The notes under the pieces: generated by a model
What the model was told of the DNA's origin: nothing
Databases searched by the model: none
Seen by the model: only the letters and a program-made list of their open reading frames with translations
Source of the DNA: Nannocystis sp. ILAH1
GTDB lineage: Bacteria > Myxococcota_A > Polyangia > Nannocystales > Nannocystaceae
DNA: 64,000 bases
Assembly (NCBI RefSeq): GCF_026626585.1
Contig: NZ_JAPNKD010000018.1
Coordinates: 75,718 to 139,717 of the forward strand
Direction: 5' to 3'
Program-made: the position numbers and the translations under genes
Shown: positions 4,021-62,663 of the stretch, in pieces
Layout of the letters: each line of letters opens with the position of its first letter
Position numbering within the stretch: position 1 is the first letter of the stretch

Positions 4021-4086
4021 TCGCGTCGCCTGACATCGGCCGGGGATGGCGGACACGGCCCGCGTCGCCCCGGGCCGTCGGCGCGC

Positions 4087-4341: not shown

Positions 4342-5036
4342 TCATCGGCGACTCGATCACCGTCGGCTCCGGCAACGAGGCCGCGAATAACTCGCCGGAG
4401 TGCTCGGCGGACTCCTACGGCAACCCGGGCGGGTGGGGCCAGCCTTATCATAACAATTGGCGGTCCTACGGCGCGGTCGCGGCGCGCAGCCTCGACGCGG
4501 AATACCATGTCACTGCGGTGTCCGGTATCGGCCTCGTCCGCAACTACTCGTTCCTGTACGACGCGAGGCCGATGCCCGCGGTCTACGACCTGATGTTTCT
4601 CGAGCTGCAGCAGGGCTCGCCGTCGTGGGAGCCGCAGGGGTTCGTCCCGGACGTCGTCGTCGTCGCGCTCGGCACCAACGACTTCTCGCTCGGCGACTCC
4701 GAACGCCCGCGGATGACCGAGGCCGAGTTCGCCGCCGCCTACGTCGAGTTCGTCGCCGAGCTGCGCGGCGATTACCCCGAGGCGCACATCATCCTCGCGT
4801 CGAGTCTGATGCTCGGCGACGGCTGGCCGACCCCGGCCGACCAGTTCCTCACCGACCAGAAGACCGCGCTCGCCGAGGTCGAGGCCGAGTTCGCGACCGG
4901 CGGCGACACGAAGGTGCACGCCTTCTACACGACGAAGCTCATCGGCGATGGCTGCGGCACGCACCCGAGCGCCGCGCAGCACGAGGCGATGGCGGCAGAA
5001 CTCGCCGAATTCGTGCGCGCGAAGGTCGGCTGGTAA
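4335..5036 (+). CDS. SGNH/GDSL-family hydrolase (esterase or acetylesterase-like) with an unusually short N-terminus
   Basis: The GDS motif sits at residues 5-7 (MAFIGDSITVG), with GTNDF and DGCGTHP blocks downstream. Only 4 residues precede the catalytic block and there is no signal peptide. Confidence 0.7.
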   Translation: MAFIGDSITVGSGNEAANNSPECSADSYGNPGGWGQPYHNNWRSYGAVAARSLDAEYHVTAVSGIGLVRNYSFLYDARPMPAVYDLMFLELQQGSPSWEPQGFVPDVVVVALGTNDFSLGDSERPRMTEAEFAAAYVEFVAELRGDYPEAHIILASSLMLGDGWPTPADQFLTDQKTALAEVEAEFATGGDTKVHAFYTTKLIGDGCGTHPSAAQHEAMAAELAEFVRAKVGW

Positions 5037-5045
5037 GGCCGCAGT

Positions 5046-5513
5046 GTGATGTCATGTCGCGCGGTCGCGCTATCCCACGCGGCCGCCGAGTTGAGATGGC
5101 TCGCAATCGCGCGCGTTGACACGGTCCACGGAGTGGGCGAAAGATCGCGTGTGGCTTTGGTCCCCGAGACTCAACTGTTCTCCTGCCCCGGATGCGACGA
5201 ACTGGTACGCGCCGCCGATCCGGTCTGTCCCCATTGCGGGGTGTCGCGGTCCCGCGCGGAGCGCACCGGCTCGTTGGCCGCGCTGGCTGCCGCTCTCGTG
5301 GTCGCCGCCTGCACCACCGGCCAGCCCGCATACGGCGGGCCCGACACCGATTCGGAGGGCACGGAGGTGACCCAGACGGCCGCGACGACGACGGACGCGA
5401 CGACGACGGACGCGACGACGACGGACGCGACGACGACGACGGACGCCACGGGCACGACGGCACCGACGACGGGCACGGGCTCGGAGTCGACCACCGACGC
5501 CACGACCGGGTAG
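5046..5513 (+). CDS. zinc-ribbon (CPGC...CPHC), single-TM, Thr/Asp-rich repeat protein. The start is uncertain (ATG 5046 or GTG 5151).
   Basis: It has a CxxC-x10-CxxC ribbon, a hydrophobic helix SLAALAAALVVAAC and a TTTDA repeat tail. It begins 10 nt after the esterase stop. Confidence 0.4.
   Translation: MMSCRAVALSHAAAELRWLAIARVDTVHGVGERSRVALVPETQLFSCPGCDELVRAADPVCPHCGVSRSRAERTGSLAALAAALVVAACTTGQPAYGGPDTDSEGTEVTQTAATTTDATTTDATTTDATTTTDATGTTAPTTGTGSESTTDATTG
5383..5447. repeat. four or more tandem 15-nt repeats (GCGACGACGACGGAC) encoding TTTDA units
   Basis: Direct reading. Confidence 0.8.
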
Positions 5514-5755
5514 CGGCGCCCGCCGAGCGCGACCTCGTGCTCGTCCCTCGCGGACGAGGCCGCGCATTCGCGACGCCCCGGACGACGCGATGCGGGCGTG
5601 ACCGTCCGGGTCGCACGTCGGCGTGAAATTCCCGAGAAATTCGCGGACCGCGGGGAGCGGGTAGGGTGATTCGGTCTGGACGCCGAATGCAGCGTCGCCC
5701 CGCCGGGCCGCCGACGATGTCGGTCCGGTGATTCACGCAATGGATTCATCACGTC

Positions 5756-6853
5756 ATGAATGCCCTGTCTCGCACCCTGCTGATTGTCACCCCCTGGATA
5801 GGTCTCGCATGCGATGTTTTGGAGGACCCCGCGTCGCCGGCGGCCGCGGCCGCGGACGACGACGTGGACGAGGAGGCCGCGGAGGCCCTGGAACCGGGCG
5901 AGCTGGGCGACCCGGAATGGTTGCAGGACACGGCCCCCGATCCCCAGGCGGGGCTGCTGTGTATCCTCTGCATCCTCGGCGGCGCTGAGCCGGCCTGCGG
6001 CGCGGACGGCGAGAGCTACGCGAACGCCTGCTTCGCCGCGTGCGAGGGCGGCGGGGCCGTCCCCGCGGTCACCTACTGGCCCGACGACGACGGCGACGGG
6101 TTCGGCGACGCGAGCGCGCCTCCGACGAATGCGTGCACCCTCCCCGAGGGGGCGAGCGACAACGGCGACGACTGCGACGACGCGGACGACGCCGTGTCCC
6201 CGGGCAGCCCCGAGGCGTGCGACGGCGTCGACAACGATTGCGACGCGGCGAGCCACTGCGAGGCGACGAGCTGCGCCGACATCGCGCTCGAGGATCCGTC
6301 GGCGCTCGACGGCGATTACACGCTGCACGTCGACCTCGACCCGGACCGGCCGTGGACCGCGTACTGCCATGACATGGCCGGCGAGCCGCGGACATACCTG
6401 TCGCTGGTGGCGGTCGGGGAGGGGCGTAACTTCGCGCAATACGCCGGCGACGCCTCGGTGCGGACCGCCTTCACGCGGGTGCGTATCGAGCCGACCACGC
6501 TGGCCGTCGACATCGACGACCTCACCTTCGCCAGCTCGAGCGGCGGGCTCTACCACGGCCAAGAACTGGTGACGTCGATGCCGTACGGGGTCGCGGAGGG
6601 CTGCGGGCATGTGGCCGAGCCGGGCGTCGCCAACGTCGACCTGACGGGCACGCCGTTCAAGATCGCCTCACCGTTCTGCACCCTGGGCTTCAACGCATTC
6701 GGCAGTGTGACGTTCAGTCAGGACGACCAGGTCGCGGACGTCGTGGGCGATGGAAATTGCGGCTGGACCTCGCCGACTTGCTCCTACGATCCGCATCAGC
6801 TCATGAACACAGTGAACGGGTGGATCCTTCAGCTCGCGTACGTCGAGCCGTAG
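5756..6853 (+). CDS. secreted Cys-rich protein with a Kazal-like motif (CGADGESYANACFAAC) and an Asp/Cys-rich metal-binding-type repeat (DGDGFGD...CDDADD...CDGVDNDCD)
   Basis: Hydrophobic N-terminus MNALSRTLLIVTPWIGLAC. Motifs as stated. 365 aa. Confidence 0.7.
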   Translation: MNALSRTLLIVTPWIGLACDVLEDPASPAAAAADDDVDEEAAEALEPGELGDPEWLQDTAPDPQAGLLCILCILGGAEPACGADGESYANACFAACEGGGAVPAVTYWPDDDGDGFGDASAPPTNACTLPEGASDNGDDCDDADDAVSPGSPEACDGVDNDCDAASHCEATSCADIALEDPSALDGDYTLHVDLDPDRPWTAYCHDMAGEPRTYLSLVAVGEGRNFAQYAGDASVRTAFTRVRIEPTTLAVDIDDLTFASSSGGLYHGQELVTSMPYGVAEGCGHVAEPGVANVDLTGTPFKIASPFCTLGFNAFGSVTFSQDDQVADVVGDGNCGWTSPTCSYDPHQLMNTVNGWILQLAYVEP

Positions 6854-6856
6854 GAG

Positions 6857-8194
6857 TCAGCGACGCGGCGCCGCTTCCCGGAGGAGCCGCGGGAGCCTGA
6901 CGATGAACTCGCTGCCCCTACCCGGACCGTCGCTGTGCGCGGTGACGGAGCCGCCGTGCAGCTCGACCAGGCGACGGACCAGCGCCAGGCCGATGCCGAG
7001 ACCGCCTTGGGCCTGGTGGAAGGTGCGATCGGCCTGCGTGAACAGCTCGAAGACCTTCGGCAACACCTCACCAGGGATCCCGGTGCCCGAGTCGGCGACG
7101 CGGATCAGCACCCGCGCCTCGCTTGCGGCGAGCTCGACGGTGAGGCGGATCTGCCCGCCCTCGGGCGTGTACTTGGCGGCGTTGTCGAGCAGGTTCCCGA
7201 AGACCTGGCTCAGGCGCGTGCGGTCGCCTTCGATCCAGATCGGCTCCTCCGGCAGCGTGAGGCCGAGTTGATGGCGCCGCGCCTCGATCCGCGACCGGGT
7301 CGTCTCGAGCGCCAGGCCGACGACCACGGCGACGTCGAGCGGAGCGCTCTGCAGCGTGAGCTTGTCCTGGACGAGCCGCGAGACGTCGAGCAGGTCGTCG
7401 ACGACGCGGTGCAGCTGCCTGGCCTGGCGATCGATCATGTCGCGACACCAGCCCACCTGGGGATCGGCGAGCTCCTTGAGGCCCATCAGCTCGACTGCGC
7501 TGTGGATCGGCGCCAGCGGGTTGCGCAGCTCATGCGCCAGCATGGCCAGGAACTCGTCCTTCTGGCGGTCGGCCTGCCGCAGCTGCGCGTGCGTGCGTCG
7601 CAGCGCCTCCTCGGTCCGCTGGCGCTCGGTGACCTCTCCGGCGAGGGTGCGGTTGGCCTCGGCCAGGCCGGCGTTGGCCTGCTCGAGCACCGCGTTGAGC
7701 TGCTCGAGCTCGCGGGCCTTCTCGGCCTGCAGGGTCGTGTTGGTGAGCGCGAGCAGGGCGTTGGCCTGCTCGAGCTCGCGGTTGGCCCGCACCAGCTCCT
7801 GGCGATTGAGGCACAGCTCGACCAGCACCGAGACCTTGCCGCGCAGGATCTCGGGGACGATCGGGACGTAGACGTAGTCGACCGCGCCGAGCTCGTAGCC
7901 GCGGAGGGCGTCGAGCTCGGTCATGTCGTGGCCGGTGACGAAGATGATCGGCGTCCGCTCGAAGCGCGGGTGCTGGTGGATCAGCGCCGCGGTCTCGAAG
8001 CCGTCCATCTCCGGCATGCTGACGTCCAGGAGGATGACGGCGAATTCCTCGCGCAGGACCCTCTGCAGCGCTTCGGCGCCCGAGGTGGCGCGCACCAGGT
8101 TCTGCGCGAGCGGTGCGAGGATGGTCTCGTAGCTGAGCAGCCGGGCCGGCTGGTCGTCCACGAGGAGAATGTTGACTCTTCCAGGCGCGCTCAT
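6857..8194 (-). CDS. hybrid sensor histidine kinase (N-terminal receiver, coiled coil, HisKA, HATPase_c)
   Basis: ATG at 8194 (MSAPGRVNILLVDD...) with a GGAGACGG Shine-Dalgarno. The receiver carries the D-box LLDVSMP. H-box LAHELRNPL. G-boxes are present. The longer ORF reaching 8473 is a frame artifact. Confidence 0.85.
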   Translation of the reverse strand: MSAPGRVNILLVDDQPARLLSYETILAPLAQNLVRATSGAEALQRVLREEFAVILLDVSMPEMDGFETAALIHQHPRFERTPIIFVTGHDMTELDALRGYELGAVDYVYVPIVPEILRGKVSVLVELCLNRQELVRANRELEQANALLALTNTTLQAEKARELEQLNAVLEQANAGLAEANRTLAGEVTERQRTEEALRRTHAQLRQADRQKDEFLAMLAHELRNPLAPIHSAVELMGLKELADPQVGWCRDMIDRQARQLHRVVDDLLDVSRLVQDKLTLQSAPLDVAVVVGLALETTRSRIEARRHQLGLTLPEEPIWIEGDRTRLSQVFGNLLDNAAKYTPEGGQIRLTVELAASEARVLIRVADSGTGIPGEVLPKVFELFTQADRTFHQAQGGLGIGLALVRRLVELHGGSVTAHSDGPGRGSEFIVRLPRLLREAAPRR

Positions 8195-8907
8195 GACGCC
8201 GTCTCCGTCAGCGACAGAACGAAACGATTGTAGGGACCGTGCAAATGTATGGACCGAGCCGGGCGTGCGTGCTGCTTCCACTGGCTCGCCGGTGAGAGGT
8301 GCCTTTCTGGCCCCAGGATGTCCAGCGAAATCGATGTCGTCGTTGCCTTGCGATCCGCGGTGAGTTCGACGGAGAACCGCTGCGCGACCCGCAGCGTGGG
8401 CTTGCTGTGCCTGCTGTGCCTGCTCGCCGCGCCCGTCGCTCGAGTTCGAAAAAATCGGGTCCGAGCACATCAACGACCCGACCGTCAGGCCGCACGGGAC
8501 GGAAGGGATCGCGGGTGCGCAGCGTCGACGCGATCCGCTGGCCGCTGCCGCGGGACCTCGGGCCCACCACGATCTGCCGTCGTGCTATTGCAGAGGCCGG
8601 CGGTAGCCTCGCCCGGTGCCCGCGGTTGCGCGTGGCGGCCTCGTCGCCATGCCTCCCGGGTTGACATCTCCGGTGTCCGTCTATCGCTCCGTTCGGAGCC
8701 CGTAATGCCTTCACAAGCCCTGCGGGAGGGCGGAAATTGCGCGCCAAAGTCGTGGGCCGCTCGCCTCGAGGCGGCGATTCGATTCACGCGACCTGAAGGG
8801 CCCATTGGCCGGTGAGTCTGCGCAAGGATTGTCATCCCGGGCGTACCTGGGCTTCGTGATCGGCGCGGTCCTTCTCAGTCGGACTTCGGTGAGGTAATGG
8901 GAGAACC

Positions 8908-21825: not shown

Positions 21826-22809
21826 ATGGGTTATTCTGGCCCCAGCATGGACGAGCGTTCGAGTGGCCCCGAGGACGCGTCGGCGACGGCGCTGGCGGAT
21901 GATTGGTCCGTCCTCCTGGCAGTGACCGAGCAGCTGAACGAGGCGACGGTCCGCGAAGCCACGCTGCAGGCATTCCTCCTGGCGGCGCCGCGGCGCGACG
22001 AGGCCGAGGTGGTGCTCTGCACCGTCGAGCACGACGCCGCCGACAAGCCGGAGTGGCTCTCGGTCGCGGTGGTCCGGCCAGCAGCGGTGCGGCCGGCACG
22101 GGCCCACGTCGGCGGCCGCTACCACCTCCCCGACATGCCGTTCTCACGGGTCTGGCTCGAGCAGCCGGGCGTGCCGGTGCTCGTCGGATCCGCCGCGACC
22201 GATCCGCGGATCGATCCGGTCCTGCGCGACATGTGGGCGGCCGCCGGCATCAAGGCGGCGCTGATGATCGCGTTGACCCTGCGCGGCCGCGTCGTCGGCG
22301 TGTTCTCGATACAGTGGAGCTGCGAGGTGCCGCTCGGCCCGCGGGAGCAGCGGATCTACCAGATCCTCTCGCGCAACGCGGCGCTGTTGCTCGAGAACAT
22401 GGTGATCGTCGATCGCCTGCAGGCCGCGCTGGCCGAGCGCAGCGCGCCGCTGATCCCGATCACCGACGACATCCTGGTCATGCCGCTGATCGGCACGCTC
22501 GACGAGACCCGCCGCGCGCGGATCCTCGAGGTGGCGCTGCAGGGGTCGTCCGCCGCGCGGGTCACGATCATCGACATCACCGGCGTCCCGTCGCTCGACG
22601 TCCACGCCGCCGCGCTCCTCACCAGCACCGCCCAGGCGCTGCGGCTGCTCGGCGTGCTCCCGATCCTGAGCGGCGTGCGTGCGGAGGTCGCCCGGGACCT
22701 GATGTCTTTCGGCGATGCGCTGACCGGCATCGTGACCTGCGGGACGCTCCAGGCCGGCGTCGAATACGCCCTGCGGCAGCTCGGCAAGTCGTATTCGCGC
22801 GCGATCTAG
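21826..22809 (+). CDS. GAF-STAS sensor protein
   Basis: ATG at 21826. A GAF-like middle region followed by a STAS block that is near-parallel to the 2845-4020 protein (APLIPITDDILVMPLIGTLD...IIDITG). Confidence 0.7.
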   Translation: MGYSGPSMDERSSGPEDASATALADDWSVLLAVTEQLNEATVREATLQAFLLAAPRRDEAEVVLCTVEHDAADKPEWLSVAVVRPAAVRPARAHVGGRYHLPDMPFSRVWLEQPGVPVLVGSAATDPRIDPVLRDMWAAAGIKAALMIALTLRGRVVGVFSIQWSCEVPLGPREQRIYQILSRNAALLLENMVIVDRLQAALAERSAPLIPITDDILVMPLIGTLDETRRARILEVALQGSSAARVTIIDITGVPSLDVHAAALLTSTAQALRLLGVLPILSGVRAEVARDLMSFGDALTGIVTCGTLQAGVEYALRQLGKSYSRAI

Positions 22810-22887
22810 CAGGTCGCTGAAAAATGGCGACGGAGCCCGCGAAGCCGCCCCACTCATCATCGAGAAGTGCCCTGCGCGGCCGAATTC

Positions 22888-22915
22888 GGCCATGTTCTGT
22901 CCGAATGGACATGCC
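22888..22915. repeat. palindromic element GGCCATGTTCTGTCCGAATGGACATGCC (TGTCC-N4-GGACA core), 80 bp after the GAF-STAS stop and 35 bp outside the IS left end
   Basis: Direct reading. It is an 18/22 direct match to 24518-24539. Confidence 0.6.
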
Positions 22916-23010
22916 GCTTTGGGCCGGCCGGGACTTTTTCAGCAACCTGCTAGCCCGGATTTCTCACCACGGCGAGGAATTCCGGCCGTACTTCCCGAGT
23001 TTGAGCGGGT

Positions 23011-24456
23011 GTGAAACAGGTGCTGGCCACCCAGGGGTACGGCCGGAACACGACAAGGTGTATCCGCGCCGAGTTCGATTTTCAACCTGCCGGGCGACGA
23101 CGCGTCGAAGCTGCGTTCGACGCCGGACGGGTCAGCTCGGACGGAGGTTTGCTGCTGCTGCGCGAGCTGACCAAAAGTTCAGGTGTGTTTCGAAGGTTCG
23201 CGTCCTGCTTTCGGGATCACCGCGACCCCAGCCGCATCGAGCACACCGTCGAGGAACTACTCGCGCAGCGCGTGCTGGGCCTGCTGTGCGGTTACGAGGA
23301 TTTGAACGACCACGACACACTCCGCGATGATGCCTTGCTCGCGCTGGCGGTCGGCAAGGCCGATCCGACCGGCGAGCAGCGCAAGCGGGAGCGCGACCGA
23401 GGTCACGCGCTGGCCGGCAAGAGCACGTTGAACCGCCTGGAGCTGGCGACGCCGCTCGTCGCTGGTGACGAGCGCTACAAGAAGATCAGCTACGACGACC
23501 ACGGCATCCAGCGCCTCTTCGTCGACACCTTCCTCGCCGCCCACGCTGAAGCACCAGCGGAGATTGTCCTCGATCTCGATGCGACCGACGACCCGGTACA
23601 CGGTCAGCAGGAAGGCCGTTTCTTTCACGGCTTCTATGACGGCTACTGCTACCTACCGCTGTACGTCTTCTGCGGCGACTTTCTCCTTGGCGCCGCGCTG
23701 AACACCGCCGACGAGCAGCCAGTCAGCCATGCAGTCGAGGAGCTCGAGCGGATCGTCGGTCAGATCCTCGCCCGCTGGCCCGATGTCCGGATCATCGTGC
23801 GGGGCGATTCCGGCTTCTGCCGCGACGAGGTCATGCGCTGGTGCGAAGACAACGGCCTCTTCTTCGTCCTGGGCCTGCAGAAGAACTCGCGCCTTGTCGC
23901 CGAGATCGAGGACGAGATGAACGAAGCCCGCGCCATCGCCGAGCGTACCGGCAAGAACGCTCGTGTATTCAAGGACTTCCGATACGAGACGAACCGGTCC
24001 TGGTCCTGTGAGCGTCGCGTGATCGGCAAGGCCGAGTACACGACCGACAAGGAGAACCCGCGCTTCGTCGCCACCAACCTGTCGTGCGACGAGTACGACG
24101 CCCGCGGCCTCTACGAGGACCTGTACTGCGCTCGCGGCGACATGGAGAATCGGATCAAGGAGCAGCAACTCGGCCTCTTCGCCGACCGCACCAGCGCGCA
24201 CACGCTGCGCGCCAACCAGCTCCGCCTCTGGCTCTCGTCCGTCGCCTACATGATCCTGAACGAGCTCCGCCGACTCGCACTCGTAGGCACCGAACTCGCG
24301 CACGCCCAGGTCTCCACGATCCGCACGCGGCTGCTCAAGATCGGTGCCATCGTCACGACCTCGGTCCGCCGCATCTACGTCTCCCTCAGCTCGGTCTTCC
24401 CCTTCCAGCACGTCTGGTGGAGAGCCCTCGACAACCTCCGCCCAGCTCACTCATGA
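23011..24456 (+). CDS. IS1380-family DDE transposase
   Basis: 481 aa. Blocks GGLLLLRELT, RDPSRIEHTVEELLAQRVLGLLCGYEDLNDHD and LDLDATDDPVHGQQEGRFFHGFYDGYCYLPLYVF match the IS1380 transposase family. Confidence 0.85.
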   Translation: MKQVLATQGYGRNTTRCIRAEFDFQPAGRRRVEAAFDAGRVSSDGGLLLLRELTKSSGVFRRFASCFRDHRDPSRIEHTVEELLAQRVLGLLCGYEDLNDHDTLRDDALLALAVGKADPTGEQRKRERDRGHALAGKSTLNRLELATPLVAGDERYKKISYDDHGIQRLFVDTFLAAHAEAPAEIVLDLDATDDPVHGQQEGRFFHGFYDGYCYLPLYVFCGDFLLGAALNTADEQPVSHAVEELERIVGQILARWPDVRIIVRGDSGFCRDEVMRWCEDNGLFFVLGLQKNSRLVAEIEDEMNEARAIAERTGKNARVFKDFRYETNRSWSCERRVIGKAEYTTDKENPRFVATNLSCDEYDARGLYEDLYCARGDMENRIKEQQLGLFADRTSAHTLRANQLRLWLSSVAYMILNELRRLALVGTELAHAQVSTIRTRLLKIGAIVTTSVRRIYVSLSSVFPFQHVWWRALDNLRPAHS

Positions 24457-24517
24457 GACGCTGACGGTCCTCGACAAATTCCTACCTGATGGTGCGCCTC
24501 CATCCGCGCAGGGACTC

Positions 24518-24547
24518 GTCTGTCCTCATGGACATGTCTTCCGGAAG
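24518..24547. repeat. palindromic element GTCTGTCCTCATGGACATGTCTTCCGGAAG inside the IS, within the unusually long 225-bp segment between the transposase stop and the right inverted repeat
   Basis: Direct reading. Confidence 0.6.
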
Positions 24548-24723
24548 GCGTCCGCCGGGCTTGTAGCCCATCATACAGCTCGATCTCGCGCGCTCGCCGG
24601 TATCACCTGCGGGCTCATGTGGGCGCCGTACGAGCGATCGGTGCCAGGGTCTGACGACGGCCGCTCGGCAGGCTCCGCTATCCGTGGTGAGAAATCCGGA
24701 CTAGGCCCGCGCCGCGGCTCGGT

Positions 24724-40556: not shown

Positions 40557-41825
40557 ATGTCCACCAATCCTCCGACTCAAGTCCAGACCTTCGCGCTGTC
40601 GATGTTCACCAACGCCGTCCAGAACGTGACCGGCCAGGACCTCGCCCTGCGGGCGTCCAAGCAGATCAGCCAGGCCCTCGAAAACGCCGCCTCCACCATC
40701 GGCCAGTGGCAGCTCGTCTGGGGCCCCGGCGTGCTGGTGGGGAAGGACGGCTACAGCGTCAACACCATGTACGTGTCGCAGAGCGTCGCCGATCCCTCGC
40801 AGTACGTGATCTCCATCGGCGGCACCAACTTCAACTCCCCGATCGACACGCTCATCGAGGACCTCCACGTCTACAAGCAGGTGCCCTGGCTGTTCAACAT
40901 CGGCGCGATCGGAGCCAAGATCGCGCTCGGCACCGCGATCGGTCTGCTCAATCTCCAGAACTTGAGGCCCGCCCCCCGGCTCCCCGGCGAGGGCACCACT
41001 CTGGTCGACTTCCTCCGGACCATCGTGAGCAACAAGGTGCACATCACCGTCGCCGGTCACAGCCTCGGCGGCGCCCTCGCGCCCACCGTCGCGCTGTGGC
41101 TCGCCGACACTGCGCAGGGGCTGGTGCTGCCCTGGGATCCGGGCAAGAACGCGACGATCGGCGCGCAGTCGTTCGCCGGCCCGACCGCGGGCAACGGCGA
41201 GTTCGCCTTCTACTCGGGCGCCAGGCTCGGCGCGTTGCTGCAGCCTGCCTACAACACCCTCGACCTCGTGCCGCACGCGTGGGCGGAGTTCGGCACGCCG
41301 TCCCTGTTCGAGATGTGGAAGATCTACGAGCCCAACATCGCCCCGCCCGTGCTGCCCAAGGTCGACCTCTCCTACGCCGCGATCGTGGTGCTGGTCGAGG
41401 TGTTCCGGCTGCTGGCCATGGGCGGCGGCTATACGACGCTGCCCAACCTCAAGCCGGTCACCGGCTCGTACACCACGGACGCTTACAAGAGCTCGACCCT
41501 CGACTCGCTGCAGAAGTTCCTGGCCCAGGGCGCATACCAGCACATCGAGGGGTACTACGCCCCGTTCGGCTACGACCCGAACTGGATGCCGGCTTCGCCG
41601 CCGGAGCCGGTGATCCTGTCGCCGGAGCTCGCGGCGCTGGCGCAGAGCTCCTCGTCGGCGAACGACTTCGTGGCAGCGCTGCAGCAGCGCCCGACGCGGC
41701 AGATCCAGGTCGGCGACGTCGTCGTCGACGCGCCCAAGGGCCCCAACGATCCGCAGGCAGATCGCGTCGCCGCCATCGTCCAGGCCGCGTTCGCCAAGCA
41801 GGCCGGAGTGAATCCGCCGGCGTGA
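40557..41825 (+). CDS. class-3 (fungal-type) lipase family protein, no signal peptide
   Basis: ATG at 40557. GHSLGGA nucleophile elbow. 422 aa. Confidence 0.75.
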   Translation: MSTNPPTQVQTFALSMFTNAVQNVTGQDLALRASKQISQALENAASTIGQWQLVWGPGVLVGKDGYSVNTMYVSQSVADPSQYVISIGGTNFNSPIDTLIEDLHVYKQVPWLFNIGAIGAKIALGTAIGLLNLQNLRPAPRLPGEGTTLVDFLRTIVSNKVHITVAGHSLGGALAPTVALWLADTAQGLVLPWDPGKNATIGAQSFAGPTAGNGEFAFYSGARLGALLQPAYNTLDLVPHAWAEFGTPSLFEMWKIYEPNIAPPVLPKVDLSYAAIVVLVEVFRLLAMGGGYTTLPNLKPVTGSYTTDAYKSSTLDSLQKFLAQGAYQHIEGYYAPFGYDPNWMPASPPEPVILSPELAALAQSSSSANDFVAALQQRPTRQIQVGDVVVDAPKGPNDPQADRVAAIVQAAFAKQAGVNPPA

Positions 41826-43065: not shown

Positions 43066-43158
43066 GCGGTGACTCCGGCGTCGCTGCGTCGAATCGCGGG
43101 GCGCTCCGCGGTCGATGGCGCTGCCGGACTGCGGTAGGATCGGTCCGCGGAGGAGCAC

Positions 43159-44235
43159 ATGCGCGTGAGGATGGCAGCGAGACTGACGATCGCCGCGGCG
43201 ATCGTCGCGGCTCCGGGGACGGCGCGGGCGTGGAACGAGAGCGGGCACCGGATCGTCGCCCGCATCGCCTGGGACGAGCTGACGCGGGCGCAGCAGGTGT
43301 TCGCGTCGGAGCTGCTGGTCCGTCACCCGCGCTTTGCCGAGGACTTCGCGGCCCGCATGCCGCCGGAGATCGCGGCGCGCCCGGCCGACGACGCCCAACG
43401 GCAGCAGTGGGTGTTCATGCACGCGGCGACCTGGCCCGACCTGCTGAAGGGCGCGAACAAGCAGCTGAACGAGACGATCGCGGCGCTGCCGGCCGGCGCG
43501 GAGAAGACCGAGCTCGAGCGCCGCCTCGCCGACGTCAAGCGCCACGACAACCCGACGTGGCACTACGACAACAAGCCGGTCCACGTCGACCCGTACGCGC
43601 TGCCGGCGATCGCTCCGCCCGCGAACCGACCGGTCGGGGTCCAGCAGGCGCTGCCGAACGCGCTGCGCGAGCTCGACGATCGCAGCTTGCCGGTCGAGCG
43701 CCGGGCGGTCGCTCTGGCGTGGGTGCTCCACCTGGTCGGCGACTCGCACCAGCCGCTGCACACCGTGGCGCTGTTCTCGTCGCGGCACCTGCCGCAGGGC
43801 GACCTCGGCGGCAACGCCCTGATCGTCCGGCTGCCCGGACCGGCCGGCGCGACGCCGACCCGGCTGCACGCGGTGTGGGACGACATGCTCGGCGACGATC
43901 CGAAGACCGAGCGCGCGGCCAAGAGCCGCATCGTCGCCGCCAACCCGCGGCGGAGCCTGAAGCCGGAGCTGGCGGCCTCTGACGGCGCGGCGGGGGTCGA
44001 GGCGATGGTCAACCTGTGGCTCGACGAGAGCTTCCGCGCCGCCGACGCGAGCGTGTACGACGCCCGTCTGCGCGCCGCGTTGCTGGCCCCGCTCGCCGCC
44101 GGCGCGACCTCGCCGTTCCCGATCGCGCTCGACCGCCGCTACCTGCAAGCGGCGCGCGCGGTGGCGATGCGCCGCGCGGCCCTGGCCGGGTATCGCCTCG
44201 CCGATTGCATCGGACGGGCCGAGAGCCGGCCCTGA
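43159..44235 (+). CDS. secreted S1/P1-type zinc nuclease family protein
   Basis: GGAGGA Shine-Dalgarno. Signal peptide, then WNESGHRIVARIAWDEL resembling the N-terminus of S1/P1 nucleases. Confidence 0.65.
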   Translation: MRVRMAARLTIAAAIVAAPGTARAWNESGHRIVARIAWDELTRAQQVFASELLVRHPRFAEDFAARMPPEIAARPADDAQRQQWVFMHAATWPDLLKGANKQLNETIAALPAGAEKTELERRLADVKRHDNPTWHYDNKPVHVDPYALPAIAPPANRPVGVQQALPNALRELDDRSLPVERRAVALAWVLHLVGDSHQPLHTVALFSSRHLPQGDLGGNALIVRLPGPAGATPTRLHAVWDDMLGDDPKTERAAKSRIVAANPRRSLKPELAASDGAAGVEAMVNLWLDESFRAADASVYDARLRAALLAPLAAGATSPFPIALDRRYLQAARAVAMRRAALAGYRLADCIGRAESRP

Positions 44236-44251: not shown

Positions 44252-44415
44252 ATTGTGATGATATGTCCTTCAGGGCATGTCATCACAATGTCGCCCTTGT
44301 CGGAATGTCCGGATGACCTTCGGGACATTCCGGAATGGCCATGTCTCGCAGCGTCGCACACCGTCGTCACGGTGAGCCTGATGCTCTTTCAGTCATGCCT
44401 GATGGGGCATGTCCA
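44252..44415. repeat. cluster of three REP-like palindromic elements in a convergent spacer: 44252-44290 (ATTGTGATGA-TATGTCCTTCAGGGCATG-TCATCACAAT), 44301-44332 (CGGAATGTCC-N12-GGACATTCCG) and 44393-44415 (CATGCC-N6-GGCATGTCC)
   Basis: Direct reading. These are members of the GGACATGTCC-core family. Confidence 0.75.
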
Positions 44416-44427
44416 AAAGGTCACCTT

Positions 44428-50688: not shown

Positions 50689-50766
50689 GAGGACATGTCC
50701 CGAGAAGAAGGTTCAAACGGACATGTCCTGGGCGGCATGTCGAGGTGAACATGCCCTGAAGGACAG
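50689..50766. repeat. three REP-like elements in a convergent spacer: GGACATGTCC (50691-50700), GGACATGTCC (50719-50728) and GGCATGT-N8-ACATGCC (50734-50755)
   Basis: Direct reading. Confidence 0.8.
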
Positions 50767-50769
50767 AAC

Positions 50770-51213
50770 TCAGTCGAGCGGCCGCGTCATGAGCACCCGC
50801 GGCGGGGCGGTGAAGCCGGAGCGGCGGTAGAGCTCGATGGCGGGCGTGTTGTCGGTGCGGACCATCAGGTGGACCGCGCGGGCCCCGTGGGCGCGGGCGG
50901 AGGCGAGGGCGGCGTCGAGGAACAGGCGGCCGCGACCGGCGCCGCGGACCTCGGCCCGCAGATACAGCTCGGTGAGGAAAGCGTCGCGACCGCCCCACTC
51001 GAGGTCGAAGCCCCAGGTGAGCACGAAGTAGCCGAGCGGCGCGTCGCCGTCGAGGCCGAGGACCACGGTGCCGAGACCGGGCGAGCCGATCAGGGTCCGC
51101 AGCGGCGCCTCGCCGGGTCCGCGGCGCCACGGGATGTGCTCCAGGCGGTTGAAGTCCTCCATCATGTCGAGGATCGCGGGGACATCGGAGCTGGTGGCCG
51201 GGCGAAAGTGCAT
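50770..51213 (-). CDS. GNAT-family N-acetyltransferase
   Basis: 147 aa. [33 protein letters not shown] acetyl-CoA binding block. Confidence 0.75.
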
Positions 51214-55545: not shown

Positions 55546-55702
55546 GGCGGGGAGCCTCCGAAGGGCGGGCGCGGGCTCGCTGCAGTGAAGCGCGGGGACC
55601 GAGTTTTTAAAGAAGGCGGGCGGTCTCCGCCGGCGCGCGGACAAGGTTGCGAGCTCGCGGTGAGGCGAGGGGGGCCATGGCGACGGGCTCGCCCAGGTCG
55701 AC

Positions 55703-55790
55703 GAGACATGCCTGAAAGACCATGTCGAATCGGGCATGTCGAATCGAGCATGACGATCAAGACATGTCCATCGGGACATGGCCGAGAAGA
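55703..55790. repeat. composite REP-like cluster in a convergent spacer: GACATGCC...GACCATGTC, direct repeat CATGTCGAATCG x2 (55721-55732 and 55735-55746), and CATGTCC-ATCG-GGACATG (55763-55780)
   Basis: Direct reading. Confidence 0.75.
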
Positions 55791-55795
55791 CAGTC

Positions 55796-56908
55796 TCAAT
55801 CGCCGAGCTCGCGCAGCAAGATCCGCGCGCGCAGGCGGCGGCGCTCGTCGGCGCCGAGGTTGTCGACGTAGGCCCGCAGGAGCGCGCGGGCCTCGGCGCG
55901 GGCGGCCGGGTCGGCGGCGTCGGCCAGCAGGATGCCCAGGTTGAAGGTCAGCTCCGGCGGCAGCTTGGCGGGCGTCGTGGTGTCGAGCCCGAGCTCGCCG
56001 AGCGCGCTGCGGTAGGCGGCCTCGGCCGGCTCGCGCTCGCGGCGGCGGGCGTGGCTCACCCCGAGGCCGAGGAACGCCGCGTAGCGCAGTCGCGGCGAGG
56101 GCGCGGCGGAGGCCTGCTGGTACAGCCGCACCGCCTCGTCGAGGTTGCCGGCCGCGAGCTCGGCGGCGGCCCAGGCGAGCGCCGCGGCGTGGTCGTCGGG
56201 CGCCAGCTCGAGCGCGCGGGCGAAGCGGCGCCGACCGTCCACCGGATCGGCCGAGCGAAAGGCGATCCGCCCGCACGCGGCCGCCAGCACCGCCGCGCCC
56301 TCGCGGTCGCGCAGGCGGGCGAGCAGCGGGTCGGCGCGGTCGCGGCAGATCGGCGCGGCCCGTTCGCGCGGGTCGGCGTCGTGCAGCGCGGTGAAGCGCA
56401 GCGCCAGGCTCAGCGCGTAGGGGTCGTCGGCGGTGACGGCCAGCGCGGCCGCGACGTCGCGCGCCAGCGCGGCCGCGTCGAGCGGCCCGTCGCGCTTGCC
56501 GAGGTCCTCGGGCCGTCGCGCCCTGAAGTCGAGGTACGCCGAGACGTCGCGGGTCAGGCGGTAGACGGCGCGCGCGCCGGCCGTCAGCGGCAGCTCGCCC
56601 ACGGCCGCGTCGATGTCGGCGACCCGCCCCGACTCGTGGGCCAGCACCGCCAGCGCGTAGGCCCGCGCGGTCGAGCCCGGATCGCGGCGCAGCAGGGCGA
56701 ACCGGATCGCCAGCGCGCCCGCGTCGTCGCCGCAGCGGAGCAGCACGTCGGCCCGGGTCAGCGCGCGGGAGCTGTCCCCGGGGACAGGCGCCGGGGCGCA
56801 CGGATCGACCTCGACCACAGCCGGCGGCGGGGCCGGCGGCGCCTTGTCCGGCGCCGTCTGACGCGCGCAGGCGAGCAGGAGCGCGCAGAGGAGCAGGGCG
56901 CGGGGCAC
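55796..56908 (-). CDS. TPR-repeat lipoprotein
   Basis: GTG at 56908. MPRALLLCALLLAC lipobox. TPR-like Ala/Leu-rich repeats. Confidence 0.65.
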   Translation of the reverse strand: MPRALLLCALLLACARQTAPDKAPPAPPPAVVEVDPCAPAPVPGDSSRALTRADVLLRCGDDAGALAIRFALLRRDPGSTARAYALAVLAHESGRVADIDAAVGELPLTAGARAVYRLTRDVSAYLDFRARRPEDLGKRDGPLDAAALARDVAAALAVTADDPYALSLALRFTALHDADPRERAAPICRDRADPLLARLRDREGAAVLAAACGRIAFRSADPVDGRRRFARALELAPDDHAAALAWAAAELAAGNLDEAVRLYQQASAAPSPRLRYAAFLGLGVSHARRREREPAEAAYRSALGELGLDTTTPAKLPPELTFNLGILLADAADPAARAEARALLRAYVDNLGADERRRLRARILLRELGD

Positions 56909-57659: not shown

Positions 57660-58157
57660 ATGCACAAGATCATCCTGACCCTGTTGGCGCTCCTCTTCAG
57701 CGTGACCGGTTGCAGCCTCACGCTCTCGTCGCACGGCGGTTGGGGGTCGGACGGCCCCGCGCCGCGGATGGCCAGCCGCGGTTACGGCTGGGGCTCCGCG
57801 GGCGACCCGGGCCTGCACGGCCGCGGCAAGCCGGCCCGTCGTGTCGACGCCAGCGAGCGCCCCGCGACGAAGCCGGCCGGCGCAGTGCCGCAGAAGGCGA
57901 AGCAGCCGGCGATCACGTGGGCGGGCGAGGTGCCGCAGAAGGCGAAGAAGCCGGCGAGCACGTGGGCGGGCGAGGTGCCGAAGAAGGCGAAGCAGCCGGC
58001 GATCACGTGGGCGGGCGAGGTGCCGAAGAAGGCGAAGCAGCCGGCGATCACGTGGGCCGGGAAGGTGCCGCCGAAGCGGGCGAAGCAGCCGAGCAAGCCC
58101 GCCGGCAAGCGGCCGGCGATCACGTGGGCCGGCACGGTCCCGCCGCGCCCGCAATGA
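57660..58157 (+). CDS. lipoprotein with four tandem 14-aa repeats (KAKQPAITWAGEVP)
   Basis: GAGG before the ATG. MHKIILTLLALLFSVTGC lipobox. 42-nt DNA repeats over about 57890-58070. Confidence 0.7.
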   Translation: MHKIILTLLALLFSVTGCSLTLSSHGGWGSDGPAPRMASRGYGWGSAGDPGLHGRGKPARRVDASERPATKPAGAVPQKAKQPAITWAGEVPQKAKKPASTWAGEVPKKAKQPAITWAGEVPKKAKQPAITWAGKVPPKRAKQPSKPAGKRPAITWAGTVPPRPQ

Positions 58158-58202
58158 GGTCGAGCAGGCGCGGCTTTCGAGGCGCACGCCGAACCTGCTC
58201 AC

Positions 58203-58236
58203 ACGGCCATGTCCATGAGGACATGGCCGTTTTTGT
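58203..58236 (+). terminator. rho-independent terminator built from a palindromic family member: ACGGCCATGTCC-ATGA-GGACATGGCCGT (12-bp perfect stem) followed by TTTTTG
   Basis: It starts 46 nt after the stop at 58157. Confidence 0.75.
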
Positions 58237-58274: not shown

Positions 58275-58288
58275 CGGACATGTCCTCG
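58275..58288. repeat. GGACATGTCC palindrome (58276-58285) in the same convergent spacer
   Basis: Direct reading. Confidence 0.7.
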
Positions 58289-58347: not shown

Positions 58348-59436
58348 TCAGGGCGTGAAGGTCTCGCAGGCCGCGTCGACGACGGTCGTCAGCGCCTCTG
58401 CGAAGGCGTCGCCGATCGGGTCGGCGCCGCGCTTCTTGCACATCGATCGGTACATGCCGCGCGCGCCGAACGTCCCGGCGACCTCGCGCAGCACCTCGGA
58501 GTCCTTGACCTCGCCGCCGCCGTAGGCGTTGTCGCAGCCGCCCTCGTCGCCGCCGATGCCGAGGAACACCACGCGCTCCGCGTCGCCCTTGGCGGCGACG
58601 ATGGCGTCGTGGATCTCCGCGGCGTCGTCGGGGCCGACCAGCGACTCGTCCTCGTCGGTGATCGCGACCACCAGCAGCACCGAGTCGGCGCGCGAGAACC
58701 CGGCGTTGACCGCGACTCCCGGATCGAGCGCCTTGGCGGCGGTCCAGGCCGGCTGCTCGTCCTCGTCGTCGGCGTCGCTGCAGGTGTCGGGGATCGACGC
58801 GTAGCCGCCGTTGTCGCCGCCCTTGCCCTCCAGCGCCTCGTCCTGGAACGGCAGCTGGACCACGCAGGCGAAGTTCTGCGCGATCGTCGGGTCGTCGGAG
58901 GCCAGCCAGTTGCGGCCGCCGGGGAACTGGCAGTCGGTGTCGCCGGCGCCGTAGTTGTGGAAGTGCGGCGGCTTCGGGCAGGCGTTGATGACTGCGACGT
59001 GGAAGTCGTCGATGCCCTCGCCGACCTCGAGCGCCAGAGTCGCCTGGATCTCCGCGAACGTCGCCGGCAACGAGGCGAGCGCGTCCGCCATGGTCGCCGA
59101 GGCGTCGACGACCAGCAGCACGTCGACCTTGGTACACGCCGCGACGATGTCCGGCAGGTCGGGCCCCGGCGAGGTCGTGGTCGACGAGTCGTCGGCTGCC
59201 GACGAGTCGTCGCCGCTGGTGGTCGTCGGCGCGGTGCCGGTGGTCTCGCCGGCGCTGGCGCTGCCGTCGGTCGGTGGCTGAGTGCTCGGGCCGCCGCTCG
59301 TGGTCGTGGTCGCGCTCGCAGTGGCGCTGGTCAGGCCGCTGGCGAAGCCGCCGGTGTCGGAGTCGTCGCCGCCGGCGCAGGCGGTCAGAAGAATGATATG
59401 TCCGAAGAGACAGGCGAGTCGAGCTGCGCTCCGCAT
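58348..59436 (-). CDS. von Willebrand factor A (vWA) domain lipoprotein
   Basis: MRSAARLACLFGHIILLTAC lipobox. Thr-rich linker. A DASATMAD stretch and an overall vWA-like fold pattern. Confidence 0.65.
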   Translation of the reverse strand: MRSAARLACLFGHIILLTACAGGDDSDTGGFASGLTSATASATTTTSGGPSTQPPTDGSASAGETTGTAPTTTSGDDSSAADDSSTTTSPGPDLPDIVAACTKVDVLLVVDASATMADALASLPATFAEIQATLALEVGEGIDDFHVAVINACPKPPHFHNYGAGDTDCQFPGGRNWLASDDPTIAQNFACVVQLPFQDEALEGKGGDNGGYASIPDTCSDADDEDEQPAWTAAKALDPGVAVNAGFSRADSVLLVVAITDEDESLVGPDDAAEIHDAIVAAKGDAERVVFLGIGGDEGGCDNAYGGGEVKDSEVLREVAGTFGARGMYRSMCKKRGADPIGDAFAEALTTVVDAACETFTP

Positions 59437-59504: not shown

Positions 59505-60407
59505 TCACGCATCGATCGGCTGCGGATCCCAGGCCGCCAGGGCCCGGTAGAAGACCTCCGGATCGAGCAGCGGCGGCAGGCCGGCGACCTGGCCGTCGCC
59601 GAGCTCGATCGCGGTCCAACCTCCCGCTGCACGCTCGGCGAGGTCGAGGCTGAAGAAGCGGCTCGGCACGCGGCGCGCGAGGTCGGCGAACTCCGGCGGC
59701 ACAGCCGAGTCGGCGATCTCCCACGCCGGCGCCTCGACGAGCGCGCGCCCATCGGCGATGAAGCGCCGCCATTCGCGGGGCAGGGGCATCCCGCTCCTCG
59801 GGTGGTTCCCGAGCGGCACCAGCGGCTCGTAGGCGCGGAAGATCAGGCCGCCGACGAGGTCGTCGCCCTGGCGCTCGATGAAGTTGCCGACCACGCGACG
59901 GACCTGGGCGATGTCGTCGGCGGCGCGGATGAAGCACGCGTCATTCCACTCGTGCTTGCGCGACTTGACGTAGTCCTTGACGACGAGCGCACGCCCGCCG
60001 AAGCGCGCCAGAGCGGCCGCGATCTGTGTCTCTTGCAGGCCGTCCTCGCGTGGCAGCACGACTGTCTCCGGCGTGTCGTCGCCGAGGTGCGGCAGCGCGG
60101 CGGGCAGCAGGTGGGCGCTGCGATAGGCCGCGGGGTCGTTGACGAGCTGCAGGCCGCGCGCGCCGAGCCCGGCGTGCAGCGCGTCGTAGGCCGCCGGCGG
60201 CAACATCCAGCCGCGGTAGACAGCGACCTCGAGGGCCTCGCTCGCCTGCACCCGGCGCAGCGCAGCGCCGACGTCTCCCGCGACCAGGGCCTCGAAGTCG
60301 ACGCACGACCACGCGATGCCGACCGCGTCGGCGGCCGCGACCTCGGGCGCGAACGCGCGATCGGGGCGGCGCTCGAGCAGCGGGTCGGTGCAGAACAGTA
60401 CGCGCAT
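59505..60407 (-). CDS. ATP-grasp-like domain protein (tentative)
   Basis: 300 aa, ATG at 60407. It lies divergent to vgrG. Confidence 0.5.
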   Translation of the reverse strand: MRVLFCTDPLLERRPDRAFAPEVAAADAVGIAWSCVDFEALVAGDVGAALRRVQASEALEVAVYRGWMLPPAAYDALHAGLGARGLQLVNDPAAYRSAHLLPAALPHLGDDTPETVVLPREDGLQETQIAAALARFGGRALVVKDYVKSRKHEWNDACFIRAADDIAQVRRVVGNFIERQGDDLVGGLIFRAYEPLVPLGNHPRSGMPLPREWRRFIADGRALVEAPAWEIADSAVPPEFADLARRVPSRFFSLDLAERAAGGWTAIELGDGQVAGLPPLLDPEVFYRALAAWDPQPIDA

Positions 60408-60506
60408 GCGGGCATCCTAGCGGGCGTCGGCGCGCGCGGCAGGACCTGCCGTCGCGGGCCTGTGCGCGACATCGGCCGGCAACAGCCAGTACACCGCTCT
60501 GTTACG

Positions 60507-62663
60507 ATGGCGCGTCCGGGGGGTGGAAGGGGTTTGATCGCCAACTTGGTCTCGGCGCTGACGGGCAACGCGGCGCTGTTCACGTTCACCGCCTCCGCCG
60601 GCGATCTCGAAGTGGTCCGCTTCGCTGGCTTCGAGGCGGTCTCGTCGCTGTTCGAGCTGCGCATCGAGCTCGCGGGTCCCGAGATCGACCTCGCGGCGCT
60701 GGTCGACAAGCCGGCGCTGCTGACGATCGGTGGCGTCGAGTCGCCGCGCCAGATCCACGGCCTCGTATGCGGCGCCGAGTACAGCGGCGAGCTGCGCCAG
60801 CACCACATCTACGAGGTGACCTTCGTGCCGCGGGTGTGGCGGCTGACGCGGCGCCAGGACAGCCGGATCTTCCAGCGCAAGACGACGCAGACGATCGTCG
60901 GCGAGGTGCTCGAGAAGGCCGGGATCCCGCGCGACTGGTTCCGCTTCGACCTGTTCTCCTCGTACAACCCGCGCGACTACTGCGTGCAGTACCGCGAGTC
61001 GGACTGGGACTTCGTCAGCCGGCTGCTCGAGGAGGACGGCATCTACTATTACTTCGAGCACAGCGCCGAGAAGCACGTGCTCGTGATGAGCGACAAGCCC
61101 GGCGCGCCGGCGATCGCGGGGCCGCAGGAGGTGTGGTGGGCCCCCCCGCACGGGTTCGTGCGCGGACAGGAGCACATCACCCGCTTCCGCCTGCTCGAGG
61201 GCGTGCGCACCGGCAAGTCCGCGCTGCGCGACCACAACCTTCACAAGCCCGACCAGCAGATGGACGCCAGCGAGTCGGCGCAGCTGGCCACCGACCTCGA
61301 GGTCTACGACTTCCCCGGCGAGTACCAGGTCAGCGGCGGGCGCAGCTCCGACCAGGGCGCCGGCCTGGCGAAGATCCGTCTCGAGGCGATGCAGCACGAC
61401 CGCCGCCGCGGCCTCGGCGAGAGTGATTGCCCGCGGCTCGTGCCCGGCTACTCGTTCACGCAGGCCGGCCACCAGCGCGGCGACCTCGACGGCGATTACA
61501 AGCTGCTGCGCGTCGAGCACAAGGGCGAGCAGTCGCAGGTGCTCGAGCAGGACGCCGGCACCGAGTTCTCCTACAACAACAGCTTCGTGTGCATCGAGGC
61601 CAAGACGCCGTACCGGCCGCCGCGCGTGACCCCGCGGCCCGCGGTGAGAGGCGTGCAGACGGCCACCGTGGTCGGCCCGCCCAACGAGGAGATCTACGTC
61701 GACGAGCACGCGCGGGTGAAGGTGCAGTTCCACTGGGACCGCAGCGACAAGTTCAGCGAGGATTCGTCGTGTTGGGTCCGCGTCAGCCAGCTGTGGGCCG
61801 GCAACTCGTGGGGCGCGATGTTCATCCCGCGGATCGGCCACGAGGTGCTGGTCGACTTCATCGAGGGCGACCCCGACCGCCCGGTGATCGTCGGCCGGAT
61901 CTACCACGGCCTCAACCTGCCGCCGTACCCGCTGCCGGAGCAGAAGACCAAGAGCACCATCAAGTCGGACACCTACCAGGGGGCCGGCTACAACGAGCTG
62001 CGCTTCGAGGACCAGAAGGGGATCGAGCAGATCTTCATGCACGCGCAGCGCAACATGGACATCCGCGTCCTGCACGACCGGATGGAGAGCGTGCTGCACA
62101 ACCGCCACCTGACCGTCGGCAGCAACGACGGCGGGGCCAAGATCGGCGACTACTACGAGAACATCTGGCGCGACCACCACTGGCGCATCGATCGCAACCG
62201 CAACGAGCACGTCGGCGGCGACCTGCGGATCCGTGTCGGCGGCATCGACGGCGTCGGCCACGTCGACACCATCATCGAGGGCAACCGCCGCGAGCTGGTG
62301 ATGCAGAGCCAGAGCCTCGAGATCAAGGCCGACCTCAAGATCAAGATCGGCGGCGGCCACCACGAGCAGGTCTTGGGCGACGTCCACCGCAAGGTCACGG
62401 GCCTGTTGTCGGTCGAGGCGCTCAAGGAGGTCCACTACAAGTCGTCCAAGGTCGTGATCGAGGCGTCGCAGGGGCTGACCGTCCGCGGCCCCGGCGGCTT
62501 CATCACCATTCACGCCGGCGGCATCGACATCGTTGGCACTCTGGTGAAGATCAACAGCGGCGGCTCGGCGCTCACCGGTACGGCCGCCGGCCCGCAGAAC
62601 CCCGACGAGGCCAAGCCCGTCGAGCCCACCAAGCCCGACCCGGCCGACAGCGGCGGCATCTGA
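60507..62663 (+). CDS. vgrG: type VI secretion spike protein VgrG (TssI)
   Basis: 718 aa. The N-terminus (...AALFTFTASAGDLEVVRFAGFEAVSSLFELRIEL) and the gp27/gp5-like core (RVSQLWAGNSWGAMFIPRIGHEVLVDFIEGDPDRPVIVG) are characteristic of VgrG. Confidence 0.9.
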   Translation: MARPGGGRGLIANLVSALTGNAALFTFTASAGDLEVVRFAGFEAVSSLFELRIELAGPEIDLAALVDKPALLTIGGVESPRQIHGLVCGAEYSGELRQHHIYEVTFVPRVWRLTRRQDSRIFQRKTTQTIVGEVLEKAGIPRDWFRFDLFSSYNPRDYCVQYRESDWDFVSRLLEEDGIYYYFEHSAEKHVLVMSDKPGAPAIAGPQEVWWAPPHGFVRGQEHITRFRLLEGVRTGKSALRDHNLHKPDQQMDASESAQLATDLEVYDFPGEYQVSGGRSSDQGAGLAKIRLEAMQHDRRRGLGESDCPRLVPGYSFTQAGHQRGDLDGDYKLLRVEHKGEQSQVLEQDAGTEFSYNNSFVCIEAKTPYRPPRVTPRPAVRGVQTATVVGPPNEEIYVDEHARVKVQFHWDRSDKFSEDSSCWVRVSQLWAGNSWGAMFIPRIGHEVLVDFIEGDPDRPVIVGRIYHGLNLPPYPLPEQKTKSTIKSDTYQGAGYNELRFEDQKGIEQIFMHAQRNMDIRVLHDRMESVLHNRHLTVGSNDGGAKIGDYYENIWRDHHWRIDRNRNEHVGGDLRIRVGGIDGVGHVDTIIEGNRRELVMQSQSLEIKADLKIKIGGGHHEQVLGDVHRKVTGLLSVEALKEVHYKSSKVVIEASQGLTVRGPGGFITIHAGGIDIVGTLVKINSGGSALTGTAAGPQNPDEAKPVEPTKPDPADSGGI

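Follow-up and report, generated by a model that had tools for sequence, protein, structure and literature searches.

Paired units of a 14-bp palindromic repeat form predicted terminator hairpins downstream of two genes in Nannocystis

Repeats and terminators at the ends of bacterial genes

The formation of transcript 3' ends in very G+C-rich bacteria, where terminators composed of a hairpin and a U-tract are scarce, is poorly understood. In vitro, the RNA polymerase of mycobacteria, a separate lineage of high G+C content, depends on a U-tract (PMC3993855). In Neisseria and the Pasteurellaceae, inverted pairs of the uptake sequences (DUS/USS) serve as the stems of terminators (Kingsford et al. 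2007, PMC1852404). [quoted passage not shown]

In a stretch of 64,000 nucleotides from Nannocystis sp. ILAH1 (referred to here as the window), two hairpins followed by T runs are found at positions 58203-58236 and 590-622. At both sites there is a stable hairpin, a U-rich tract 3' of the stem, and a location on the transcribed strand past the end of a gene. The likeness to intrinsic terminators is close: a G+C-rich hairpin and then a T run lie on the coding strand soon after a stop codon, and conservation, in the case of 58203, ends at the T run. They differ from such terminators in that the sequence of the Nannocystis stem is not free, since the stem consists of a genus-wide repeat unit in two copies, and in that the T runs of ILAH1 are short (4-5 T). 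From sequence comparison, 58203-58236 is probably a Rho-independent terminator and a protective 3' hairpin of the transcript of a repeat lipoprotein gene, and 590-622 probably has the same part for the first gene of the window. The two sites themselves appear to be of a known kind, and the repeat from which they are built appears to be new.

With the DUS/USS terminators, the Nannocystis family has in common an over-represented short word, close inverted pairs of that word, and terminator hairpins after genes. These terminators are the nearest functional precedent for a repeat word that has been co-opted as a terminator. The Nannocystis unit differs in being itself palindromic, in occurring in phased arrays of up to 6 units, and in forming pairs that mostly have no T run. 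A comparison with the REP elements of E. coli, made in the preliminary description of this DNA, stands as an analogy only. Like REP/BIME, the family is a set of high-copy extragenic palindromes found at gene 3' ends and in convergent gaps, where they form regular arrays, and REP/BIME is its nearest structural precedent. However, a REP is an imperfect palindrome of 20-40 bp, whereas the Nannocystis unit has 14 bp, is self-palindromic, and is repeated in a strict 14-bp phase. Nor is the REP tag a feature of the 51 family hairpins that were searched for it (GTAG in 0, CTAC in 1, CGTC in 1 and GACG in 2). Since T runs are mostly lacking and the REP tags are absent, the family appears to work in the manner of REP/BIME or of uptake-sequence terminators while being a member of neither class.

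Anatomy of the two hairpins

The hairpin at 58203-58230 (plus strand) lies on the coding strand of the repeat lipoprotein gene (57660-58157, plus strand), 45 nt 3' of its stop codon and in a convergent gap. As had been described from the letters alone, it is a perfect 12-bp stem, formed by ACGGCCATGTCC (58203-58214) and GGACATGGCCGT (58219-58230) around the loop ATGA (58215-58218), and followed by a T run. The T run, TTTTTGT (58230-58236, plus strand, with T at 58230-58234), overlaps the stem by one base: its first T is the last base of the stem, which leaves four unpaired T (58231-58234) and then G and T. By the standards of canonical terminators this is short, and it counts against the terminator reading. 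The predicted RNA fold has a free energy of -23.2 kcal/mol (z = -7.9), and none of 200 shuffled sequences folds as well. The gene on the other side of the gap (58348-59436, minus strand) encodes a 362-aa protein with 100% identity to ILAH1 OV203_40465, a hypothetical protein, and a single family unit, GGACATGTCC, is found at 58276-58285, out of phase with the hairpin.

The lipoprotein has the lipobox VTGC, and within its gene a 45-bp repeat (57885-58091) that encodes 15-mers resembling KQPAITWAGEVPKKA is present in 4.5 copies. Its orthologs have 165-211 aa, and the difference in length presumably corresponds to the number of repeats. Between the lipoprotein stop codon and the terminator hairpin, a further hairpin is predicted by folding in the 3' UTR (GAGCAGG...CCTGCTC, 58162-58200, plus strand). 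Its 7-bp helix (58162-58168 with 58194-58200) is 100% paired in five genomes and has two compensatory pairs, and in Nannocystis sp. SCPEA4, where 11 nt are deleted, GAGCGCGC/GCGCGCTC stands in its place. It is possible that this hairpin is a 3'-UTR regulatory element or an sRNA.

The second predicted terminator hairpin (590-617, plus strand) consists of units 1-2 of a five-unit array (CATG at 595-651). It also lies on the coding strand and in a convergent gap, 24 nt 3' of the stop codon of the first gene, of which the 3' part is in the window (2-565, plus strand). The ortholog of this gene encodes a protein of 723-732 aa and stands beside a Penicillinase_R gene; the convergent neighbour is a YceI gene on the minus strand, from 728. 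A stem of 13 bp, as first proposed, would leave a loop of 2 nt, and the realistic stem is one of 12 bp, again perfect, with GGGGACATGCTC (590-601), the loop GTCC and GAGCATGTCCCC (606-617). An alternative pairing of 14 bp includes two G·U pairs and reaches into the T run. That T run, TTTTT (618-622, plus strand), doubles as the 5-nt left flank of array unit 3. The RNA fold of the hairpin has -23.6 kcal/mol (z = -6.8), and here too 0 of 200 shuffles fold as well. Units 3-5 of the array follow at 623-660 (plus strand; CATG at 623, 637 and 651), with an imperfect hairpin at 634-657 that comprises units 4-5.

Each of the two hairpins is a pair of adjacent family units that are exact reverse complements of each other. 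The palindromic core said to be used in both is indeed common to them: CATG is present in each arm, and the two copies are 14 nt apart (at 58208 and 58222 in the two-unit pair that makes up the 58203 hairpin). The T run of both hairpins is on the side facing away from the nearer gene; in a reading of the minus strand, a T run follows neither of them. In the mechanism proposed here, RNA polymerase would transcribe the two adjacent and exactly complementary 14-nt units, and the nascent RNA would fold into a stem of 12-14 bp and about -23 kcal/mol directly before the U run. The weak rU:dA hybrid would then permit release of the transcript, which would end at the T run at both sites, and the hairpin would afterwards shield the 3' end against exonucleases. 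The stems are assembled from phased Nannocystis repeat units that are placed immediately after stop codons.

Perfect hairpins of 12 bp are expected by chance about 0.2 times in 64 kb at 70% G+C, by an arithmetic estimate. A chance origin of the hairpins was ruled out by these stem statistics, by the shuffled folds, and by an excess of perfect unit pairs that is described below. A consensus terminator scan of the window gave 19 terminator-like sites, where about 15.8 are expected, and found more than 9 pairs at 58203 only. Terminators of the hairpin-plus-T type are therefore rare in the window, in keeping with the earlier remark that they are uncommon at high G+C, which holds for this window of about 70% G+C. 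Site 590 was missed by the scan, probably because the G-T extension of its stem consumes two T. A known RNA family was also ruled out, since Rfam 15 gave no match in the window at the gathering score; at the two hairpins there were generic hairpin matches, all of them below threshold.

Conservation among Nannocystis species

The 362-aa protein encoded at 58348-59436 was used as the anchor for fetching loci orthologous to 58203. Syntenic orthologs were obtained from N. exedens, N. punicea and Nannocystis sp. SCPEA4, together with one metagenome contig (L195). The latter was the one true ortholog in a metagenome scan anchored on the lipoprotein 3' UTR, the matches of which were mostly random and G+C-rich. 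All 12 pairs of the stem are identical in the five genomes, including ILAH1, and the loop ATGA is changed to ACGG in SCPEA4. The T run is kept in all five with 5-7 T, and has 7 T in N. exedens, N. punicea and the metagenome copy. Because the stem is invariant, it is evidence of conservation but not of covariation. Among the four species, identity is 0.75-0.95 from the promoter region through the gene to its 3' UTR. Directly past the T run it drops, from 0.78-0.88 to 0.23-0.49, which is the pattern that would be expected where a transcription unit ends. In N. exedens and N. punicea, the position of the single unit at 58276-58285 is taken by a two-unit family hairpin with a T-rich tail, on the strand of the convergent minus-strand gene. 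The contigs of more distant Nannocystaceae that carry a homolog of the 362-aa protein (L116-L119) are not syntenic, and the family is absent from them.

Orthologs of the 590 hairpin were found in N. pusilla, N. bainbridge and SCPEA4. In the alignment of these four species the stem has 14 pairs, 100% of the cells are paired, and two pairs are changed on both sides (G-C/A-U and G-C/C-G). Inside the N. pusilla stem there is a G·U pair, the counterpart of which on the opposite strand would be an A·C mismatch. The loops are different in all four (GTCC, GTGC, GTGA and GATC), and the T run is retained as TTTTT, TTATTT or TTTTTT. With four sequences, the observed covariation score was reached by 24 of 500 shuffles. 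The array and some partial conservation extend beyond the T run of 590, which counts against the terminator reading at this site. For the arrays at 50694 and 55707, counterparts exist in the orthologous gaps, and these differ in the number and sequence of their units. The comparison points to a rapid turnover of arrays, in contrast to the two T-run hairpins, which stay in place and appear to be under purifying and compensatory selection.

These data bear on whether the T runs are used at all. The hairpins could be protective 3' structures only, with termination occurring downstream (Rho-dependent or by convergent collision), exonucleases trimming the transcript back to the stem, and the T runs uninvolved. 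This would agree with the rarity of canonical terminators in the window, with the short ILAH1 T run at 58203, and with the many family hairpins that are located at gene 3' ends without a T run. A merely protective hairpin would not need a conserved T run, however, and every ortholog, at 58203 as at 590, has kept the T run or has a longer one. At 58203, moreover, conservation stops exactly at the T run. A purely protective function thus seems unlikely, and termination at the T runs, followed by protection of the new 3' end, is the reading preferred for both sites.

A 14-bp palindromic repeat family

The units of both hairpins belong to a family for which 215 Nannocystis units, from about 400 kb, give the consensus aaGGRCATGYCCtt (last position t/n), a 14-bp palindrome that is written (AAGGACATGTCCTT)n in array form. 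The consensus is A-rich on its 5' side and T-rich on its 3' side, and some T runs could therefore be by-products of the consensus. Family measurements other than the consensus refer to 461 kb of Nannocystis DNA unless another size is given. In the 461 kb, 280 pairs of CATG are spaced 14 bp apart, and 5 pairs each are spaced 13 and 15 bp apart. The same phase is seen in the window, with 15 pairs at 14 bp, 9 at 28, 6 at 42 and 4 at 56, and 3 or fewer at any other distance. The 10-mer GGRCATGYCC has a density of 0.54/kb in non-coding and 0.033/kb in coding DNA (16 times denser in the former), with 0.011/kb expected from composition, and its scarcity in coding DNA separates the family from the uptake-sequence class. 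Chains of at least two units occur about 265 times per Mb.

Besides the two arrays that contain the hairpins, the window has an array at 50689-50760 (CATG at 50694, 50722, 50736 and 50750), which lies between convergent DUF3089 and GNAT genes and abuts the GNAT stop codon, and a six-unit array at 55702-55790 (CATG at 55707-55777, spacing 14), which abuts the stop codon of a TPR gene (55796-56908, minus strand). A two-unit chain is found at 44389-44416 (CATG at 44394 and 44408), after the gene at 43138-44235. In three of the arrays, the 14-bp slot that comes next contains a degenerate closing unit, AArGACAG (665-672, 50764-50771 and 55791-55798). More generally, at Nannocystis loci both ends of an array tend to be decayed half-units, of the form GGA-CAGn on one side and nATG-TCC on the other. 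An ordinary 14-bp minisatellite was ruled out by the flanks of neighbouring units, which are as alike as those of random units: in a direct comparison of 10 positions, 3.91 agree between units i and i+1, 3.83 between i and i+2, and 3.96 between random units. Since adjacent units are no more alike than random ones, the arrays are not products of recent slippage.

The spread of the family was evaluated by a scan for four CATG at 14-bp spacing, in one genome per species, across 185,579 species. At least 111 loci were found, of which at least 34 are from seven Nannocystis species. Among the matches listed, the phased family occurs in Nannocystis only, and the others are 7- or 14-bp minisatellites with near-identical units. 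A phage or mobile-element origin was rejected, a viral scan having given only 4 isolated matches, to unrelated phages. No description of the repeat was found in the literature on Nannocystis and other myxobacteria, as far as it was covered, and GGACATGTCC as a search term leads only to papers on p53. The 14-bp-phased palindromic repeat appears to be specific to the genus Nannocystis and previously undescribed, and as such is an additional architecture among bacterial extragenic repeats.

Location at gene ends

The family marks roughly 40% of gene ends, with a phased CATG pair within 120 nt of 32 of 83 gene 3' ends (less biased loci; gaps of 40 nt or more). In about 400 kb, 49 of the 124 strong intergenic hairpins are of the family type. 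Of the arrays of three or more units, 26 are in convergent, 19 in co-directional and only 3 in divergent gaps, where the baseline gap counts are 46, 85 and 41. These gap classes come from a rough GC3-based gene call, and at least one of the "divergent" cases is a gene-calling error. In co-directional gaps, the arrays begin 5-45 nt past the upstream stop codon despite hundreds of free bases.

Such a distribution might also be produced by a selfish, REPIN-like mobile hairpin that accumulates after genes, where it is harmless, the two sites then having no function for the host. The family has the high copy number, the extragenic and genus-restricted occurrence and the palindromic form of such elements; it is enriched in convergent gaps, as many selfish repeats are; and its arrays differ in unit number and sequence between species at orthologous gaps. 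A selfish element is nonetheless very unlikely to account for the two sites. The 58203 hairpin is at the same position in five genomes, with its stem unchanged and its T run kept next to flanks that cannot be aligned, and the compensatory changes at 590 are a sign that pairing is under selection. The family lacks the GTAG/CGTC tag, and the arrays hug the upstream stop codon even in roomy tandem gaps.

The suggestion that the repeat family doubles as transcription terminators or as 3' stabilisers of mRNA can be upheld in part. It is supported at the two sites for which it was made by their position on the coding strand 24-45 nt past a stop codon, by conservation, by the retained T runs, by the compensatory changes at 590, and by the end of conservation at the 58203 T run; the location of the family at gene 3' ends is in its favor as well. 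It does not extend to termination by the family as a whole. After removal of orthologous duplicates, a T run is on the correct side of only 3 of 11 independent perfect hairpins (58203, 590 and L099:997), so that most family members are not canonical terminators. Given that mycobacterial RNA polymerase requires a U-tract (PMC3993855), the members lacking such a tail are probably not self-sufficient as terminators; these may act as RNA hairpins or as DNA sites.

Pairing and possible protein recognition

A strict register of palindromes also suggests the binding of protein to DNA. The met-boxes of MetJ are palindromic boxes in tandem operator arrays, located in promoters at few loci. Nannocystis arrays resemble arrays of this type in having short palindromic units that are placed head-to-tail in strict register and diverge around a conserved core, and differ from them in lying after stop codons, in an estimated number of at least 1,000 loci, and in the covariation of inverted pairs. 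It could be supposed that the 14-bp-register arrays are the functional entity, as DNA sites for a dimeric and cooperative protein (a nucleoid protein, a gyrase site or a roadblock), and that the hairpins and T runs are by-products. Taken singly, every unit is a 14-bp palindrome, arrays of as many as 6 units keep a strict phase, and the finding that adjacent units are no more alike than random ones gives core and register the look of selection and not of recent duplication. In addition, the stem core of 58203 is invariant while a neighbouring hairpin covaries, and family-wide there is no excess of G·U over A·C mismatches on the transcribed strand (31 vs 34, 36 vs 36 and 6 vs 4).

Several findings point instead to selection on pairing, and make it quite improbable that both hairpins are by-products of DNA sites. 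In both hairpins, the deviations of the two units from the palindromic consensus complement each other (GGCCATGTCC with GGACATGGCC), and the 590 stem has its compensatory changes and a strand-specific G·U pair. In the family at large, adjacent units are complementary at 12 of 12 positions in 16 cases, where 0.44 are expected from the unit profile (about 36-fold), and at 11 of 12 positions in 9 cases, where 3.4 are expected. Selection on two independent half-sites would not produce such an excess of perfect inverted pairs.

Together with termination and protection by the paired units, which remains the preferred reading of the two sites, the 14-bp register and the invariant core hint at a recognition factor, and this may be the reason that the core is kept. 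As a tentative and broader proposal, Nannocystis may possess an undescribed class of extragenic repeat, in which a 14-bp self-palindromic unit is placed in register after the stop codons at about 40% of gene ends, and the core of the unit is recognized by a dedicated factor (a protein that acts on the DNA or on the hairpin in RNA). The class might then act as a general module for 3'-end termination and stabilisation in a genome that is nearly without canonical terminators. A single genus apparently uses one phased palindromic word to tag a sizeable fraction of its gene ends, and at least two copies of the family have the full anatomy of a terminator. The family thus offers a testable handle on 3'-end formation in myxobacteria, and could yield terminator parts for the engineering of those that produce natural products.

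Other elements of the window and related loci

An IS1380-family insertion sequence at 22955-24699 has perfect 18-bp terminal inverted repeats, CCGGATTTCTCACCACGG, and a transposase gene at 23005-24456. Within it, just past the transposase stop codon, there is a family-like unit, GGACATGTC, at 24527-24540. The left end of the insertion sequence is abutted by a 148-bp element (22806-22953) that begins at the stop codon of the upstream gene, contains CATG-family units at 22885-22915, and has 19-nt inverted arms, CTAGCAGGTCGCTGAAAAA and TTTTTCAGCAACCTGCTAG, that are 95% complementary; a MITE-like element and a long 3' hairpin are both possible readings of it. Insertion of IS1380 into an array was considered and rejected: family units lie both outside the inverted repeats (22885-22915) and inside them (24527-24540), and no clear target relation of IS1380 to the family therefore emerges.

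At 41537-41632, ARAGORN calls a 96-nt tRNA-Arg(acg) that lies within a high-GC3 open reading frame. Rfam at the gathering score gives a tRNA nowhere in the window, and the call is probably false.

In N. punicea, four copies of a repeat of about 70 bp are found at one locus (L114, 19015-19461), each with the hairpin TGTCC-N4-GGACAG, a relative of the two-unit junction of the family that is without CATG. Beyond the convergent neighbour of the lipoprotein gene, the region 59802-62663 of the window (VgrG), together with positions 2900-8900 of the N. punicea and SCPEA4 loci (L114 and L115), constitutes a type VI secretion effector island. In the latter two species the island has PAAR, DUF4123, Imm71/72 and Tle1-like genes, and its content varies by species.
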